A stretch of 64,000 nucleotides of DNA, from contig JAZQPL010000072.1 of NCBI GenBank assembly GCA_045628495.1, positions 41,118 through 105,117 of the forward strand, read 5' to 3'. Origin of the DNA: Acutalibacteraceae bacterium (GTDB lineage Bacteria > Bacillota > Clostridia > Oscillospirales > Acutalibacteraceae). A program made the translations under genes and the position numbers. Under the pieces are notes generated by a model, which was not told the DNA's origin, did not search any database, and saw only the letters and a list, made by a program, of their open reading frames with translations. Positions 13,853-36,092 of the stretch are shown piece after piece (position 1 is the stretch's first letter; each line of letters opens with the position of its first letter).

Positions 13853-14596
13853 ATGGAACAGAAAAAGAAAACCGGAACAGGCGGAAAGCTCAGAGCAATA
13901 GAGCTTGAATACCAGCCGGTGTTTGATATCCATCTCAATATGGCAATTGATTATGAAATATCTATGAGAATAAACGACAGGGTTATGGGTGTTATGCTTC
14001 AGGATTTGTTTATTCCCATTGCAGAAAAATCAAATCAGATTTGCCAGCTGGGTCTTTGGGCAATCGAAGAGTGCTGTGAAGCTATTAAGCGCTGCGAAGC
14101 AAGAGAGGCAGACATAAATTCCTGCATAGTATGGATTTCTATTAAACATATCGCAAAGAAGAACTTTGTTCCGTCTGTTATGAAAATCCTTAATAAATAT
14201 GATGTTAAGCCTGAAAGATTTTGCTTCAACATAAATGAAAGCATTCTTGAAGCTGTGAAAGATCAGGTTTTTGATAATTTCACTCAGCTGAGAGAGCTCG
14301 GGTTTAAGATATCTATTGACGATTTAGGACTTGAATATACATCACTGAGCAATCTCAGCCATTATGATGTGGATTATTTCGGTATTCATTCATCCCTTAT
14401 TGAGGACATTATGGAAAGCGAAAAAACCCAGAATATGATTCAGGGACTTATTGATTTCTGCAAGAAGATTGAAGTCGAAACAAGAGTTGGCGGAGTTGAT
14501 ACTCAGGAAAAGGCGGATCTTCTTAAGAAAATGGGTGTTGACCAGCTTAAAGGTCCGTTTTACGGAAAACCGATTTCAGAAAAATCAATAGTATAA
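13853..14596 (+). CDS. stand-alone EAL-domain protein, apparently degenerate
   Basis: EAL-fold landmarks are present (LEYQPVF, FIPIAE, NINES, SIDDLGLEYTSL, KGPFYGKP). Several catalytic positions look substituted in my by-eye alignment (see findings). AGAGGG lies 6 nt before ATG 13853. The stop is 18 nt before the next gene. Confidence 0.65.
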   Translation: MEQKKKTGTGGKLRAIELEYQPVFDIHLNMAIDYEISMRINDRVMGVMLQDLFIPIAEKSNQICQLGLWAIEECCEAIKRCEAREADINSCIVWISIKHIAKKNFVPSVMKILNKYDVKPERFCFNINESILEAVKDQVFDNFTQLRELGFKISIDDLGLEYTSLSNLSHYDVDYFGIHSSLIEDIMESEKTQNMIQGLIDFCKKIEVETRVGGVDTQEKADLLKKMGVDQLKGPFYGKPISEKSIV

Positions 14597-14614
14597 CGAA
14601 GGGAGCGAGTTGCG

Positions 14615-15388
14615 TTGGCTAAAAAAAATAAAGCTGCTGTCGGCGGTCAGCCGTCAAATCCCGAAATGAGCAACAGCGACCAGATGGGCAGGTATTCTGT
14701 TAAGACAAACTCAAAAAAAGTTAATAAGCGTGAAGCTTTAATCAGAGTGCTTACCATTATTCTTATAATTTTATTGCTTTTCCTTTTTGGCTTATTTGCC
14801 TGCACTTCATATATCAAAGGCGGTAATTTTACAGTTACAACAAGTAATGAAGCTTTTAATGCAGGTATCGCTTTGAGCGAAACAAAAGATTTCAATTCTC
14901 CCCAGAGAATACTTGAAGGAAGTAAATTTGAGGAGATGAGAGAAGGTACATATCCGCTTATTCCGCAGGATATCGATAAATACGACGGTTCCAAGAATTT
15001 CAAAGAAAACGGAATGTACTATTTCACATATTCATTTTATGTTAAAAACACCGGAGAAGATGACGCAGGCTATTCGGCAAAAATCAACATAGACAGCGTT
15101 ACCGAAGGTGCTGACGAAGCTCTTCGAGTTATGGTAATCAGAGACGGCGAAAGAACAACTTTTGCAAAGCCGAAAATGGGTACCAACAATGTTCTTGAAG
15201 AATTCGCTGATAAAAATTTCAAGAGTAACCGTCTTGTTTCAACGGTTACAAATGAAAAATTCAAAGCAGGCGACATAGAAAAACTTACAGTTGTTGTCTG
15301 GTTTGAAGGAGAAGATCCCGAGTGTGTTAATGATATTCTTGAAGGAGAGGTCAAGCTTTCAATGGATTTCAACATCTATGAACCTTGA
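14615..15388 (+). CDS. type-II membrane-anchored member of the locus' fibre-subunit family (basic N-tail, one TM, TasA-like ectodomain)
   Basis: TTG start preceded by AAGGGAG. TM helix is LIRVLTIILIILLLFLFGLFA. The C-terminal strand LTVVVWFEGEDPECVND matches VRVYIWVEGNDIDCQN and VRVYIWAEGNDVDCRD of the next two genes. It has no AWF cleavage-type motif. Confidence 0.5.
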   Translation: MAKKNKAAVGGQPSNPEMSNSDQMGRYSVKTNSKKVNKREALIRVLTIILIILLLFLFGLFACTSYIKGGNFTVTTSNEAFNAGIALSETKDFNSPQRILEGSKFEEMREGTYPLIPQDIDKYDGSKNFKENGMYYFTYSFYVKNTGEDDAGYSAKINIDSVTEGADEALRVMVIRDGERTTFAKPKMGTNNVLEEFADKNFKSNRLVSTVTNEKFKAGDIEKLTVVVWFEGEDPECVNDILEGEVKLSMDFNIYEP

Positions 15389-15504
15389 TGATAAGTGACG
15401 AGGGTATCGGCGTTAAATAAATGGAGCAGCCTTTATTTGACTTATGATATGAGTACTTTTCTTTAGGTCCGATCTTTAACACGCAGGATATATATTAAAT
15501 GCGT

Positions 15505-15529
15505 TTGGTGACGCGTTAACGGTCACCAA
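15505..15529 (+). promoter_or_regulatory. 5'-leader hairpin/palindrome upstream of the first putative major subunit gene
   Basis: TTGGTGAC-gcgttaacg-GTCACCAA has perfect 8-bp arms, and the loop contains the palindrome CGTTAACG. It ends 27 nt before ATG 15556. Confidence 0.35.
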
Positions 15530-15555
15530 GGCATAATCTTTATGGAGGTAAAGAC

Positions 15556-34118: not shown

Positions 34119-34141
34119 GTTTAAGGGCAGGGTTGATTGAT

Positions 34142-34744
34142 ATGGAAAAAAGCAGAAAAAAAATTGCTGTAATCATAGTCAGCATTGTTGCGATAATTGC
34201 TGTTGTGTCAGGTACACTTGCTATGTTTACAAGCAAAAGTTCTCTGGTTCAAAACGGCAAACTTTTCGGATTCAGCAGCAATGCCCGTGTTTATTTTGAA
34301 ACAGAAGACGGAAAAACAATGAATGCTTCTGCCGATAAAGACGGATTGTACAAACTCAGTCTTGACTCGAATGCAAAAAATTACATAGGAAATTTCAGAG
34401 TAAATGTGGTTAAAAAAGGTCGTTCAAAATGTTATGTCAGAGTAAAGCTTAATGTTGAGTGGACTTTACCTGACGGCACAGTGACTGAGAATATAATGCT
34501 CCCGTACAATTTTGCAGAAAAATGGTATGATAACCGCAGCAAGGATTATTGCGTTTATTATACTGAAAACAGCGGACTTGAAGAAGATTACGATAAATCT
34601 ATAATAACAGGGTTTGATGAACAGAAATTCCTTGAAGAAGGTCTTACAGAAACAGCTGTTCCCAGAGTTTCTGTTTCGGTTGAAGCTGTTCAGATTAACC
34701 GTTATCAACAGATTTGGGGCATTGAAAAGCTCCCGTGGGAATAA
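34142..34744 (+). CDS. small secreted protein with SipW-type signal peptide (putative minor fibre subunit 4)
   Basis: N-terminus MEKSRKKIAVIIVSIVAIIAVVSGTLAMFTSKSS, then FRVNVVKKGRSKCYVRVKLNVEW. Confidence 0.5.
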   Translation: MEKSRKKIAVIIVSIVAIIAVVSGTLAMFTSKSSLVQNGKLFGFSSNARVYFETEDGKTMNASADKDGLYKLSLDSNAKNYIGNFRVNVVKKGRSKCYVRVKLNVEWTLPDGTVTENIMLPYNFAEKWYDNRSKDYCVYYTENSGLEEDYDKSIITGFDEQKFLEEGLTETAVPRVSVSVEAVQINRYQQIWGIEKLPWE

Positions 34745-34765
34745 ATTTCAAAGGGATGACTTGTT

Positions 34766-35584
34766 ATGTCAGCAGAAAAGAATAAAAAACACAGAAAGCC
34801 TGCGGTGGGGAAGCCTGCCGCAGGCAGTAATAATAAAAGAGAGAAAACGGATTCACATAAAAAATCAGTTAAACAGACAAATGTAAAAAACAATAATAAA
34901 AGTGCCGCTAAAAACAAGAATATTAAAAATAAAAACGATAAGCCAAAACCTGTTTCAAAAAGCAGGAAAGAGAAGCTGAAAAAAACTGATTTTGCTCAGA
35001 AAAAATTATCCGTTAAAGAAAAATTTGAAAAATTCAGAAAAGATTATGATATCGGAAGAATTGCGCTGGCGATTGCTGTTGTAATAATTTTTATCGCAGG
35101 GATTATTATTCTGATTGTATCGTTGACAGGCAGGAATTATTCTGTTCCGGATTATGTGAAAGATGCGGGATATAAAGGCAGAACGGAGCCGGATTCTGTT
35201 GCCTTTGATATGGATATTTCTCTTAATCAGCAAAAATCACTTGTAAAGGCAACTAAAAGAAAAGGCGAAAAAAGGAAATTCGGATTTTTTATTAACGACG
35301 AGATTAAATTGGCGGAAAGTGATGAACCTGCTCTTTTGGAATTCGGCAATGTGGAATCAAATGACTGCGTTCTGGTGTTTTTCCTGTTTGACGAAAAAGG
35401 AAACGAAATTTACCGCTCATTAGGTGTTGCCCCTGGTAAGGAAGTCCGCTCTGCAAGTTTCTTTGATGAAATTTCATACGGGACTCATGATATTACAGTT
35501 GCGGTTATAGGATACGACCCGCAAACATTTGAAAAAACAGGAATGCAGACTTCTAAACTCAAACTGAAAATCGGTGTGGATTAA
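34766..35584 (+). CDS. type-II membrane protein: ~100-aa lysine-rich cytoplasmic tail, one TM, small ectodomain
   Basis: The N-terminal ~100 aa are K/N/S-rich and basic. TM helix is IALAIAVVIIFIAGIIILIVSL. The ectodomain (FGNVESNDCVLVFFLFDEKGNEIYRSLGVAPGKE) is paralogous to that of the next gene. Confidence 0.5.
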   Translation: MSAEKNKKHRKPAVGKPAAGSNNKREKTDSHKKSVKQTNVKNNNKSAAKNKNIKNKNDKPKPVSKSRKEKLKKTDFAQKKLSVKEKFEKFRKDYDIGRIALAIAVVIIFIAGIIILIVSLTGRNYSVPDYVKDAGYKGRTEPDSVAFDMDISLNQQKSLVKATKRKGEKRKFGFFINDEIKLAESDEPALLEFGNVESNDCVLVFFLFDEKGNEIYRSLGVAPGKEVRSASFFDEISYGTHDITVAVIGYDPQTFEKTGMQTSKLKLKIGVD

Positions 35585-36092
35585 TTTGAGAAAAAATATA
35601 AACAAGAAAAAAATAACATTCATTATAAGCTGCATCATTTCACTGGTTTTTGTATCTGTTGTAATTATTCAGCTTGTTACTCCGGGTATATTATGGCTTT
35701 TCACTCCGAAAGCAAAAGCAAAAAACGGAATTATTGAAAATGCTGAAAGTATTGAACATACAGAAGATGTACCTGAAGGTGAAATAAGGTATATAGTTAA
35801 CGATAATGTGGCAATAAAAAAAGGAACATTAAAAGGCAGCTTTATGTTTGAAAACCCGAAGGCCTGTAAATATTCATTGCAGTTTTCGGTATATGAGGTT
35901 GTAGGTGACGAAAAGGAAGACAGGCTTCTATATACTTCTGAGATGATTGAACCCGGTCAGTTTATCTGTGAAGATAAAGCAGATTCAAAAATGGAGCCCG
36001 GTGAGTATAAATGTATATATTTTGCCAGAGCATATCTTGACGGAGAGTATGCGGGCGAAAGATGCGGAGATATGACAGTTACCGTTTACTGA
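35574..36092 (+). CDS. type-II membrane protein with small ectodomain (paralog of the 34766-35584 ectodomain)
   Basis: TM helix is ITFIISCIISLVFVSVVIIQLV. The ectodomain is FMFENPKACKYSLQFSVYEVVGDEKEDRLLYTSEMIEPGQ. The start is ambiguous (GTG 35574 or TTG 35586) and overlaps the previous stop. Confidence 0.45.
   Translation: MWINLRKNINKKKITFIISCIISLVFVSVVIIQLVTPGILWLFTPKAKAKNGIIENAESIEHTEDVPEGEIRYIVNDNVAIKKGTLKGSFMFENPKACKYSLQFSVYEVVGDEKEDRLLYTSEMIEPGQFICEDKADSKMEPGEYKCIYFARAYLDGEYAGERCGDMTVTVY

Follow-up and report, generated by a model that had tools for sequence, protein, structure and literature searches.

A CoCoPALM-type gene cluster of an Acutalibacteraceae bacterium that probably encodes a signal-peptidase-dependent surface fibre or adhesin system

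Relatives of the restriction-enzyme subunits McrB and McrC that are associated with signal-peptidase genes were named CoCoPALM by Bell et al. (eLife 2024), in three sentences that deferred the analysis to a later paper (PMC11090510). As described there, the two homologues are FtsB-like-anchored, coiled-coil proteins, the GTPase carries an NxD variant of the signature motif, mostly followed by E or a second D, and the loci are treated as a CoCoNuT-like clade (PMC11090510). We found no later paper under this name. The other close comparison is provided by the SipW matrix-fibre operons, tapA-sipW-tasA of Bacillus subtilis, sipW-tasA-calY of Bacillus cereus and sipW-bsaABC of Clostridium perfringens, in which a signal peptidase of the archaeal/endoplasmic reticulum (ER) type is encoded beside substrates with T-[FWY]-A-x-F-like signals. 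Here we describe a cluster of 17 genes, g01 to g17, in a 64,000-nucleotide stretch of DNA from an Acutalibacteraceae bacterium (GenBank assembly GCA_045628495.1, contig JAZQPL010000072.1, positions 41,118 to 105,117 of the forward strand; hereafter the window). We conclude that it is probably a CoCoPALM-type, signal-peptidase-dependent surface fibre or adhesin system.

The cluster shares with CoCoPALM an McrB-like GTPase of the NxD clade with a transmembrane (TM) segment and a coiled coil, a DUF2357-containing McrC homologue with a fused, predicted coiled-coil tail, and signal-peptidase genes adjacent to this pair (PMC11090510). The published description has no component list; the substrates with an Ala-Trp-Phe (AWF) motif, the membrane-anchored paralogue of the major subunit, the putative giant adhesin, the degenerate EAL protein, the multiple, apparently active archaeal-type peptidases and the fibre modules without McrBC that we discuss below are not reported in it (PMC11090510). 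The original prediction for this DNA had held that an NTPase in such a locus was undescribed, and in this it was mistaken, the association having already been named (PMC11090510). Like the SipW operons, the cluster places an archaeal/ER-type peptidase beside substrates with related signals, and it has a predicted beta-sandwich subunit with a conserved N-terminal strand and an accessory or anchoring paralogue (compare TapA). It differs from them in that its substrates do not belong to the Peptidase_M73/TasA or BsaA families, in having four peptidases and six substrates where those operons have a single peptidase with one to three substrates, and in its giant adhesin candidate, EAL protein and GTPase pair.

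The 17 co-directional open reading frames (ORFs) occupy positions 13847–36092 of the plus strand, to which all coordinates below refer unless stated otherwise, and we call this 22-kb cluster an operon. At 13 of the 16 junctions the genes overlap or lie no more than 53 nucleotides apart; the three larger gaps, of 167, 323 and 137 nucleotides, bracket g03 and g04. Minus-strand ORFs within the cluster are all short and nested. The boundaries are clear because a divergently transcribed ABC-exporter pair lies on the 5′ side and genes for a QueG-like Fe-S protein and then RNase Y lie on the 3′ side. Exported or membrane proteins are the products of 13 of the 17 genes. Scans of all 17 products against Pfam and NCBIfam gave no match to the sortase, PilD, PilB/T2SSE or PilC families.

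Gene g06 (18722–20269) encodes a membrane-anchored McrB-like GTPase. The chain runs from an amphipathic N-terminal peptide, strongly conserved even in the distant low-GC variants considered below, through a single TM segment (residues 50–87) and a heptad-like, coiled-coil stretch to an AAA+ domain. This protein matches the Escherichia coli McrB structures 6ut6, 7vsr and 6hz4 with E values of 5e-7 to 1e-6 and the NCBIfam McrB model at 1.5e-7. All 72 orthologues preserve intact Walker A (GISGTGKT) and Walker B ([VI]LDEMN) motifs, and across them the signature reads GTIN[N/I]DDST. Its N-N-D-D is in register with N-H-D-E or N-L-D-E of the CoCoNuT-like GTPases, the corresponding residues of E. coli McrB being N-T-A-D; these alignments call for no insertion or deletion against E. 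coli McrB, and so do not confirm the 'deletion' ascribed to the NxD variant. In its GTPase domain, g06 shares 40% identity (E 3e-39) with AAA ATPases whose genes adjoin DUF2357 genes on Deinococcus and other plasmids, and it matches the PADLOC candidate PDC-M26A at 2.6e-36. It belongs to the CoCoNuT-like (NxD) GTPase clade. Similarity of the N-terminal region to FtsB/FtsL is weak (FtsL_Actino, an FtsL-like family, E 0.007; FtsL_2, E 0.052).

The partner gene g07 (20312–22471) lies directly downstream. Residues 1–383 of its product match Pfam DUF2357, the N-terminal domain of McrC, at 2.2e-9 (37.3 bits; cut-off 23.3), and its homologues are annotated as DUF2357 proteins. The last 359 residues are 82% Glu, Lys, Arg and Ala, a composition suggestive of a helical or coiled-coil tail; AlphaFold2 (AF2) predicts helix at its start, residues 342–382. 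The full-length protein gave no Pfam match before the tail was removed. The alternative-frame and minus-strand ORFs at 21245–22368 (for example 21528–22226 on the plus strand, 232 residues, and 21988–22368 on the minus strand) are low-complexity artefacts of repeated AAG, GAA and GCA codons rather than genes. A nuclease of the PD-(D/E)xK type was sought in g07 with Pfam, NCBIfam, PADLOC, a profile search of the PDB and Foldseek, and none was detected; the family profile did not recover McrC from PDB sequences. An AF2 model of the N-terminal region (predicted local distance difference test score (pLDDT) 70.5, predicted template modelling score 0.46), in which an McrC-like finger or an inactivated nuclease was looked for, gave no meaningful Foldseek match. 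The anchored McrB-like NTPase and nuclease-less McrC-like protein proposed at the outset are thereby upheld. A canonical McrBC restriction system was rejected as a description of the pair, no McrC nuclease domain having been detected in g07 and no McrB N-terminal DNA-binding domain in g06.

The pair retains the Walker and signature motifs and the gene order of McrBC type IV restriction systems and CoCoNuTs, and its closest relatives outside the g06 family are the plasmid CoCoNuT-like GTPases beside DUF2357 genes. One might therefore read the cluster as an anti-phage or conflict system of that lineage, with the GTPase pair at its core and the envelope proteins acting as sensors or as an adsorption barrier; the match to a PADLOC candidate and the classification of CoCoPALM as a CoCoNuT-like clade (PMC11090510) point the same way. 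We consider this very unlikely. No nuclease, HEPN or DNA- or RNA-binding domain was detected in any of the 17 products, and the DNA-binding N-terminus of McrB is replaced in g06 by the membrane segment and coiled coil. The neighbouring genes code predominantly for exported or membrane proteins, not for methyltransferases or defence functions, and in several species the cluster is found in stable chromosomal synteny beside RNase Y, not in a defence island.

Four genes of the cluster encode paralogous signal peptidases I of the archaeal/ER type: g05 (17912–18676), g10 (31176–31823), g11 (31783–32292) and g13 (32963–33484). Their scores against TIGR02228 are 60.8, 89.3, 94.5 and 88.5 bits, respectively, all above the curated cut-off of 51.85 bits. 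They match the SipW equivalog model at 1e-18 to 1e-25 (g05, which is SipW-like, at 1.1e-18), under its 190-bit cut-off. In g05, TM segments span residues 8–40 and 181–213, and a charged C-terminal tail follows the second. The catalytic Ser and His are invariant in 87 g05 orthologues and the Asp is present in 86 of them, the exception having Lys; all three residues are invariant in the orthologues of g10 (26), g11 (26) and g13 (8). These patterns suggest that all four enzymes are catalytically active, in agreement with the intact active sites first noted. The gene for g05 adjoins g06 on its upstream side and the other three lie downstream, an arrangement that 80 related loci share with the low-GC variants.

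The presumed substrates of these peptidases form a class defined by their N-termini. In six products, a basic, K/R-rich n-region and a hydrophobic core precede the sequence TFAWF (g03 and g04), TFAWY (g09), SYAWF (g12), TTAWF (g14) or TLAMF (g15). The motif x-[FY/T/L]-A-[W/M]-[FY] is exclusive to these six among the ORFs of at least 50 residues in the window, and A-W-F is retained in 87 of 88 relatives of g03 and g04, in 31 of 31 relatives of g09 and in 10 of 10 relatives of g12, which read S-S-[YF]-A-W-F. The expectation of six precursors with N-termini resembling SipW-cognate signals was thus confirmed at the level of the motif. The corresponding model, TIGR04088 (cut-off 19), was not reached: its only match in the window is g15 (13.3 bits, E 0.07), and 4 of 10 distant members of the g03 family score 14.6–16.4 bits, below the cut-off. 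A score of 12.4 bits for g15 against the BsaA-family model TIGR04090 is likewise sub-threshold. The likeness of TSSTFAWFS to GGGTYAYFS is visible in hhalign and is not significant.

Beyond this segment the smaller precursors have little in common with the major subunit. The product of g09 (30595–31170), present in 31 loci, aligns with g03 profiles at residues 3–48 only (hhalign probability 94.7%, E 6e-8), and that of g12 (32294–32959) over its N-terminal ∼32 residues only (88.5%). The resemblance of g15 (34133–34744) is weak and confined to residues ∼1–50; its orthologues have SLAWY in place of TLAMF, and all 62 members of its family recovered by homologue search are annotated as hypothetical. 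The gene g14 (33471–34118) probably starts at ATG 33471, its ORF opening at 33411, and has orthologues in four related loci (L022, L170, L171 and L172). We propose that g09 and g12 encode minor subunits. As in the major and minor pilins of type IV pili, the AWF signal is a class motif common to otherwise unrelated proteins.

The major AWF-class subunit is encoded by g03 (15556–16509) and has TFAWF at residues 28–32. The second major-type subunit, g04 (16833–17774), is 39% identical to it (blastp 8e-71) and is optional, many related loci having one copy only. When clusters at 50% identity were searched with a profile of the g03 family, 3,991 representatives matched at E≤1e-3, and 1,248 of them also at E≤1e-10; the family members scanned matched no Pfam or NCBIfam family. 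Two sequences are invariant family-wide, A-W-F-T towards the N-terminal end and R-x-Y-x-W-x-E-G-Q-D-x-D-C towards the C-terminal end, and the acidic E-G-x-D-x-D cluster in the latter could be a Ca2+ site of the kind seen in archaeal cannulae and AbpX. The AF2 model of g03 is a beta-sandwich (pLDDT 83.7) in which residues 1–50 are unstructured, and residues 28–51 hold many of the invariant or near-invariant columns of the family alignment. A segment that is unstructured in the model and yet conserved is what one would expect of a cleavage site and, after it, a strand whose order depends on polymerisation.

The proposal that these proteins are TasA-type was not sustained. None of the AWF proteins has a Pfam or NCBIfam match to TasA/Peptidase_M73; the g03 family profile found no TasA among PDB sequences, with nothing at E≤10; and profiles of g02, g03, g09, g12, g14 and g15 gave hhalign probabilities of 9% or less against Bacillus TasA-family proteins, in a comparison with a shallow alignment of five sequences, all but one fetched from Bacillus plasmids, so that a distant homology may still exist. 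The C-terminal strands are loosely alike by eye (QN..G.S...F), a likeness without statistical support. Foldseek comparison of the g03 model with the PDB yielded nothing at E≤0.001, the best E value being 0.028, and TasA was outside the top 50. The entries on this non-significant list include the Saci_0406 thread (7pnb), AbpA (7ueg), CanA (9dlo), Caf1, PapK and CfaB, several of them subunits of donor-strand filaments, among them chaperone-usher pilins.

A membrane-anchored paralogue of the major subunit is encoded immediately upstream by g02 (14615–15388). Its similarity to the g03 family extends over almost the full length (hhalign 97.8%, E 1.3e-12), and it is a type-II membrane protein with a TM segment at residues 38–69, a longer basic cytoplasmic tail and, in place of AWF, a conserved G-x-F-T. 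In one lineage (L025, L030 and L036; for example L025 4549–6405) the orthologues reach 555–654 residues, because the TM segment and the pilin-like domain are held apart by an inserted run of DVTRY(S/N)-type repeats, some 350 residues long. This insertion looks like a wall-spanning stalk, and we infer that g02 is the uncleaved membrane anchor or base of the fibre, with or without such a stalk.

The largest product of the cluster is that of g08 (22525–30564), a giant secreted GLUG/beta-helix repeat protein of 2679 residues if read from 22525, and of 2674 residues from the likely start, ATG 22540, the length first assigned to it. Scanned in pieces, it exceeds the cut-offs for GLUG (22.9 bits; cut-off 20.5) and Peptidase_M26_N (32.5 bits; cut-off 27.7), so that its description as a giant GLUG/beta-helix protein stands. 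It has neither a C-terminal TM segment nor LPXTG, and the AWF subunits likewise lack a C-terminal TM segment or sorting signal. In comparison with a 696-residue orthologue, the N-terminal ∼120 and the C-terminal 134 residues are conserved and the repeat core is variable. In distant loci the same position is occupied by a giant LRR_5 protein or by a 981-residue GLUG protein. We regard g08 as a putative adhesin whose conserved termini would be docking regions.

The AWF proteins have no significant structural or sequence match to a known pilin or to TasA, and the locus might instead be a dedicated export and processing system with several peptidases maturing several substrates. The AWF proteins would then be secreted or retained at the surface, for instance as matrix, wall-associated or substrate-binding proteins, and form no fibre, and what the GTPase pair regulated or energised would be the export of the giant protein rather than growth of a pilus. 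Inserts of the CBM_5_12 or Rib-like type in some distant members of the g03 family, typical of surface binding proteins, are in keeping with this, and in C. perfringens a folded protein of the SipW operon needs an NTPase-driven machine to cross the peptidoglycan (PMC11580942). We nevertheless consider this alternative unlikely: the N-terminal strand that follows the cleavage motif is strongly conserved, the locus encodes a membrane-anchored paralogue, in some lineages with a stalk, and its division into major and minor subunits resembles that of pilus operons.

The conservation of the cluster was examined by scanning with a degenerate pattern, each GTDB species being represented by a single genome; at least 569 loci encoding g07 relatives were identified. 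Gene order was inspected in the best 80 of these 569, and all 80 keep g01-g02-g03(-g04)-g05-g06-g07-g08(-g09-g10-g11-g12-g13...). These 80 are from metagenome-assembled genomes of Oscillospirales/Acutalibacteraceae type from human, ruminant and horse gut. In GCA_052836805.1 the gene calls match in order and size at all 17 positions, with a g03 orthologue 46% identical; g01–g08 were confirmed there by similarity and g15 by homologue search. The downstream module g09–g17 is also present in L171 and in L172, the latter with unrelated flanks, and L022 lacks g16 and g17 and has a short g08. Where g07 has fallen to 43–44% identity, the core of EAL protein, anchor, subunit, peptidase, McrB and McrC is still retained. 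Four loci labelled Coriobacteriaceae, Bacteroides faecis, Bacteroidales and Eggerthellaceae (L027, L029, L037 and L039) have the Clostridia-type arrangement and a g07 76–77% identical to the present one, the same level as in loci labelled Ruminococcus; these four look like mis-binned or mislabelled assemblies.

Could chance alone have placed a fibre operon beside a McrBC system in decay, a gene for an adhesin and one connected with c-di-GMP? The three larger gaps, with two hairpins around g03 and g04 (see below), would permit internal transcript ends, and the peptidase and AWF module is found without McrBC elsewhere. We strongly disfavour this explanation in view of the identical order in all 80 loci and in relatives as remote as those with a g07 of 43–44% identity, and of the intact GTPase motifs in all 72 sequences. 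Moreover, g07 orthologues are up to 94% identical, compared with 61–62% at best for the exposed subunit g03, which indicates purifying selection rather than decay. The cluster is a conserved unit and not a collage, the same order being kept by distant relatives with different flanks. The recurrent co-occurrence foreseen for the McrB/McrC pair, the SipW-like peptidase and the AWF genes is seen in every one of the inspected loci, and the gene order kept there includes g08. In outline, then, the elaborate SipW-like surface fibre or adhesin locus with an McrBC-like module of the original prediction stands, in respect of the conserved unit, the peptidases, the AWF precursors, the giant protein and the GTPase pair; the TasA-type assignment and the claim of novelty for the NTPase do not.

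The first gene, g01 (13847–14596; likely start ATG 13853), encodes a stand-alone degenerate EAL domain protein that matches Pfam EAL at 1.8e-46. When it is aligned with 8arv and 4rni, five residues of the catalytic and metal-binding set (E, N, E-x-x-E, D-D, K, E and Q) are seen to be replaced (N to W, E to N, K to G, E to G and Q to K). An active EAL phosphodiesterase of cyclic di-GMP (c-di-GMP) was rejected on account of these replacements. Among orthologues, the K-to-G change is found in 64 of 65 and the E-to-G change in 65 of 65, and the remaining positions are non-canonical in most. The presence of a degenerate EAL protein at the head of the cluster is thus confirmed, and these substitutions mark it as an ancient non-enzyme; it is a candidate c-di-GMP receptor or scaffold. 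An Rfam scan of the whole 64-kb window that included the c-di-GMP riboswitches among its targets gave zero matches. The first gene of a distant relative (L082, 4175–5530) encodes a 451-residue fusion of an HD_5-type domain to EAL, which suggests that the regulatory input of the locus differs among lineages.

The following mechanism would accommodate these components. The six AWF-class precursors would be inserted by the Sec pathway as type-II membrane proteins and cleaved at or next to A-W-F, the predicted site, by the four archaeal-type peptidases. In TasA, the archaeal bundling pili and the archaeal threads, subunits are joined by donor-strand complementation. In the same manner, the freed N-terminal beta-strand of one subunit would be inserted into the beta-sandwich of the next, giving a shaft of g03, with or without g04, on a base of uncleaved g02 held in the membrane and, in some lineages, raised on a wall-spanning repeat stalk. 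The products of g09, g12, g14 and g15 would serve as minor or adaptor subunits joining the giant GLUG adhesin g08 to the fibre. In the cytoplasm, g06 would form a hexamer that hydrolyses GTP when stimulated by the DUF2357 protein g07, much as McrC is established to activate McrB in McrBC. Its signal would pass through the coiled coil and the TM segment to the conserved N-terminal peptide, placed outside the membrane by the positive-inside rule, and so to the peptidase and subunit machinery. Hydrolysis would either power assembly or extrusion through the thick wall or gate these events, and the dead EAL protein g01 would provide a c-di-GMP or scaffold input in this lineage. The NTPase-dependent step by which the SipW-operon protein of C. 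perfringens crosses the peptidoglycan (PMC11580942) is a precedent for this account as well. Neither a motor nor a regulatory role for the GTPase can be put higher than a tentative suggestion.

Several points weigh against this account. The AWF proteins fail every TasA-family test and have no significant Foldseek match, and polymerisation by strand complementation is for that reason an analogy only. To our knowledge, the known donor-strand polymers require no NTP, which argues for a role of the GTPase in regulation or wall passage over one in polymerisation itself. An inactivated nuclease fold is possible in residues 160–383 of g07, the model of this region being poor (pLDDT 70.5). Finally, the GTPase pair is missing from many distant loci. 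A metagenome scan with distant g03 relatives of the 'TYAWFTAN' type led to gut loci of 26–30% GC, and in 19 of these the g03-like gene is flanked by 8 kb or more on each side. In 11 of the 19 there are peptidases beside the g03-like gene and no g06 or g07 within 10 kb; the fibre family as a whole thus does not depend on the GTPase. The low-GC loci also lack the EAL gene, which is specific to Oscillospirales-type loci, and the K/E tail of g07.

The composition of the low-GC loci places these last points in context. Archaeal-type peptidases are present in 18 of the 19, and g06 and g07 together in 8, with a g07 of 369–400 residues; four of these eight (L125–L128) do not differ in their arrangement of genes and are apparently copies of a single locus. 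The giant protein is carried by many low-GC loci too. Because such loci occur without g06 and g07, the peptidase and AWF subunit constitute the core of the system, to which the McrBC pair has been added in some loci only. Alternatively, the pair may be encoded elsewhere in the genomes of the GTPase-negative loci. Six low-GC gut loci (L095, L103, L110, L121, L137 and L148) have a g03-like gene, a giant protein of more than 1,900 residues, a ∼500-residue protein with a conserved LPRNN.KN N-terminus, and two peptidases alternating with ∼200-residue proteins whose N-termini end in Y-G-L-F-E-S or Y-S-K-(F/L)-F; they contain neither the McrBC pair nor g02. Loci of this kind may be satellites or an independent, simpler version of the system.

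The last two genes of the cluster encode further type-II membrane proteins. That of g16 (34766–35584) has a TM segment at residues 93–125 between a basic cytoplasmic tail of ∼95 residues and an ectodomain of ∼150, and matched no family in our scans; that of g17 (35574–36092), the final gene, is small, with a TM segment at residues 12–45. Proteins of similar size fill both positions in L170–L172, and both are absent from L022. With g02, these are the three anchored accessory proteins noticed initially, each having one N-proximal TM segment.

The terminator scan found no intrinsic terminator on the plus strand between 13 and 23 kb, and just two GC-rich hairpins, both directly 3′ of genes for the major subunits. 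The hairpin after g03 (16610–16638; −18.5 kcal/mol) has a poor U-tract and, with a z score of −1.35, is not significant alone; it is possibly a partial terminator or a stabiliser of the mRNA. The hairpin after g04 (17791–17822) is strong (−30.9 kcal/mol, z −3.9), with a U-run on its 5′ side and no 3′ U-tract, and is therefore not a canonical terminator. The two may tune differential stability or read-through of the abundant subunits g03 and g04.

Downstream of the cluster, the QueG/reductive-dehalogenase-like 4Fe-4S protein and RNase Y (36115–38824) form a synteny common to several relatives (L022, L170 and L171), and in relatives a DUF896 gene also belongs to it. The RNase Y ORF as listed opens at a far-upstream TTG (575 residues); the RNase Y call in L170 has 519 residues. 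On the minus strand at 39791–41212 is a gene for a G5/DUF348/3D-domain protein, a YabE/RpfB-like cell-wall protein with no relation to the cluster.

The organisation inferred here has parallels in other surface systems. By analogy only, type IV pili (with the PilY1 tip, FimX and PilB2/MshE) offer a class motif cut by a dedicated peptidase, major and minor subunits, a large adhesin associated with minor subunits, a cytoplasmic hexameric NTPase and a degenerate-EAL c-di-GMP input. There is no homology: our locus has no prepilin peptidase, PilB/PilC or pilin with an N-terminal alpha-helix, and its peptidases are Ser/His signal peptidases that act outside the membrane. The sortase-dependent pili of Gram-positive bacteria differ in their sortase and LPXTG subunits, neither of which was found among the 17 products. 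The LapD-LapG-LapA circuit of Pseudomonas also unites a degenerate EAL protein, a protease and a giant repeat adhesin, a conceptual likeness only, since g01 is a soluble, stand-alone EAL protein with no HAMP, GGDEF or TM segment and the proteases here are signal peptidases rather than LapG-type cysteine proteases.

CoCoPALM loci have been named in the literature and never characterised, the sole published statement being the name and a promised analysis (PMC11090510). The present analysis adds to the naming the AWF-class motif, a subunit family without a Pfam model, the anchored paralogue g02, proposed minor subunits that have dedicated peptidases, an exchangeable giant adhesin candidate and a dead EAL input. 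Since the fibre module occurs both with the GTPase pair and in its absence, comparison and genetics can address the role of the GTPase directly. The locus offers a tangible example of a AAA+ GTPase of restriction type whose nuclease has been lost and which has been co-opted at the cell envelope; the apparatus concerned is probably a major one for surface adhesion in abundant gut Clostridia, and has gone unstudied. A more specific proposal, which we hold to be doubtful, is that a restriction-enzyme motor has been exapted here, so that a membrane-tethered AAA+ ring, using GTP and under c-di-GMP control through the dead EAL protein, drives assembly from the base, extrusion through the wall or retraction of the adhesin-bearing fibre. 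If this were true, the McrBC-derived pair would be the mechanochemical engine of a kind of NTP-driven machinery for surface fibres that has so far gone unrecognised in Gram-positive bacteria.

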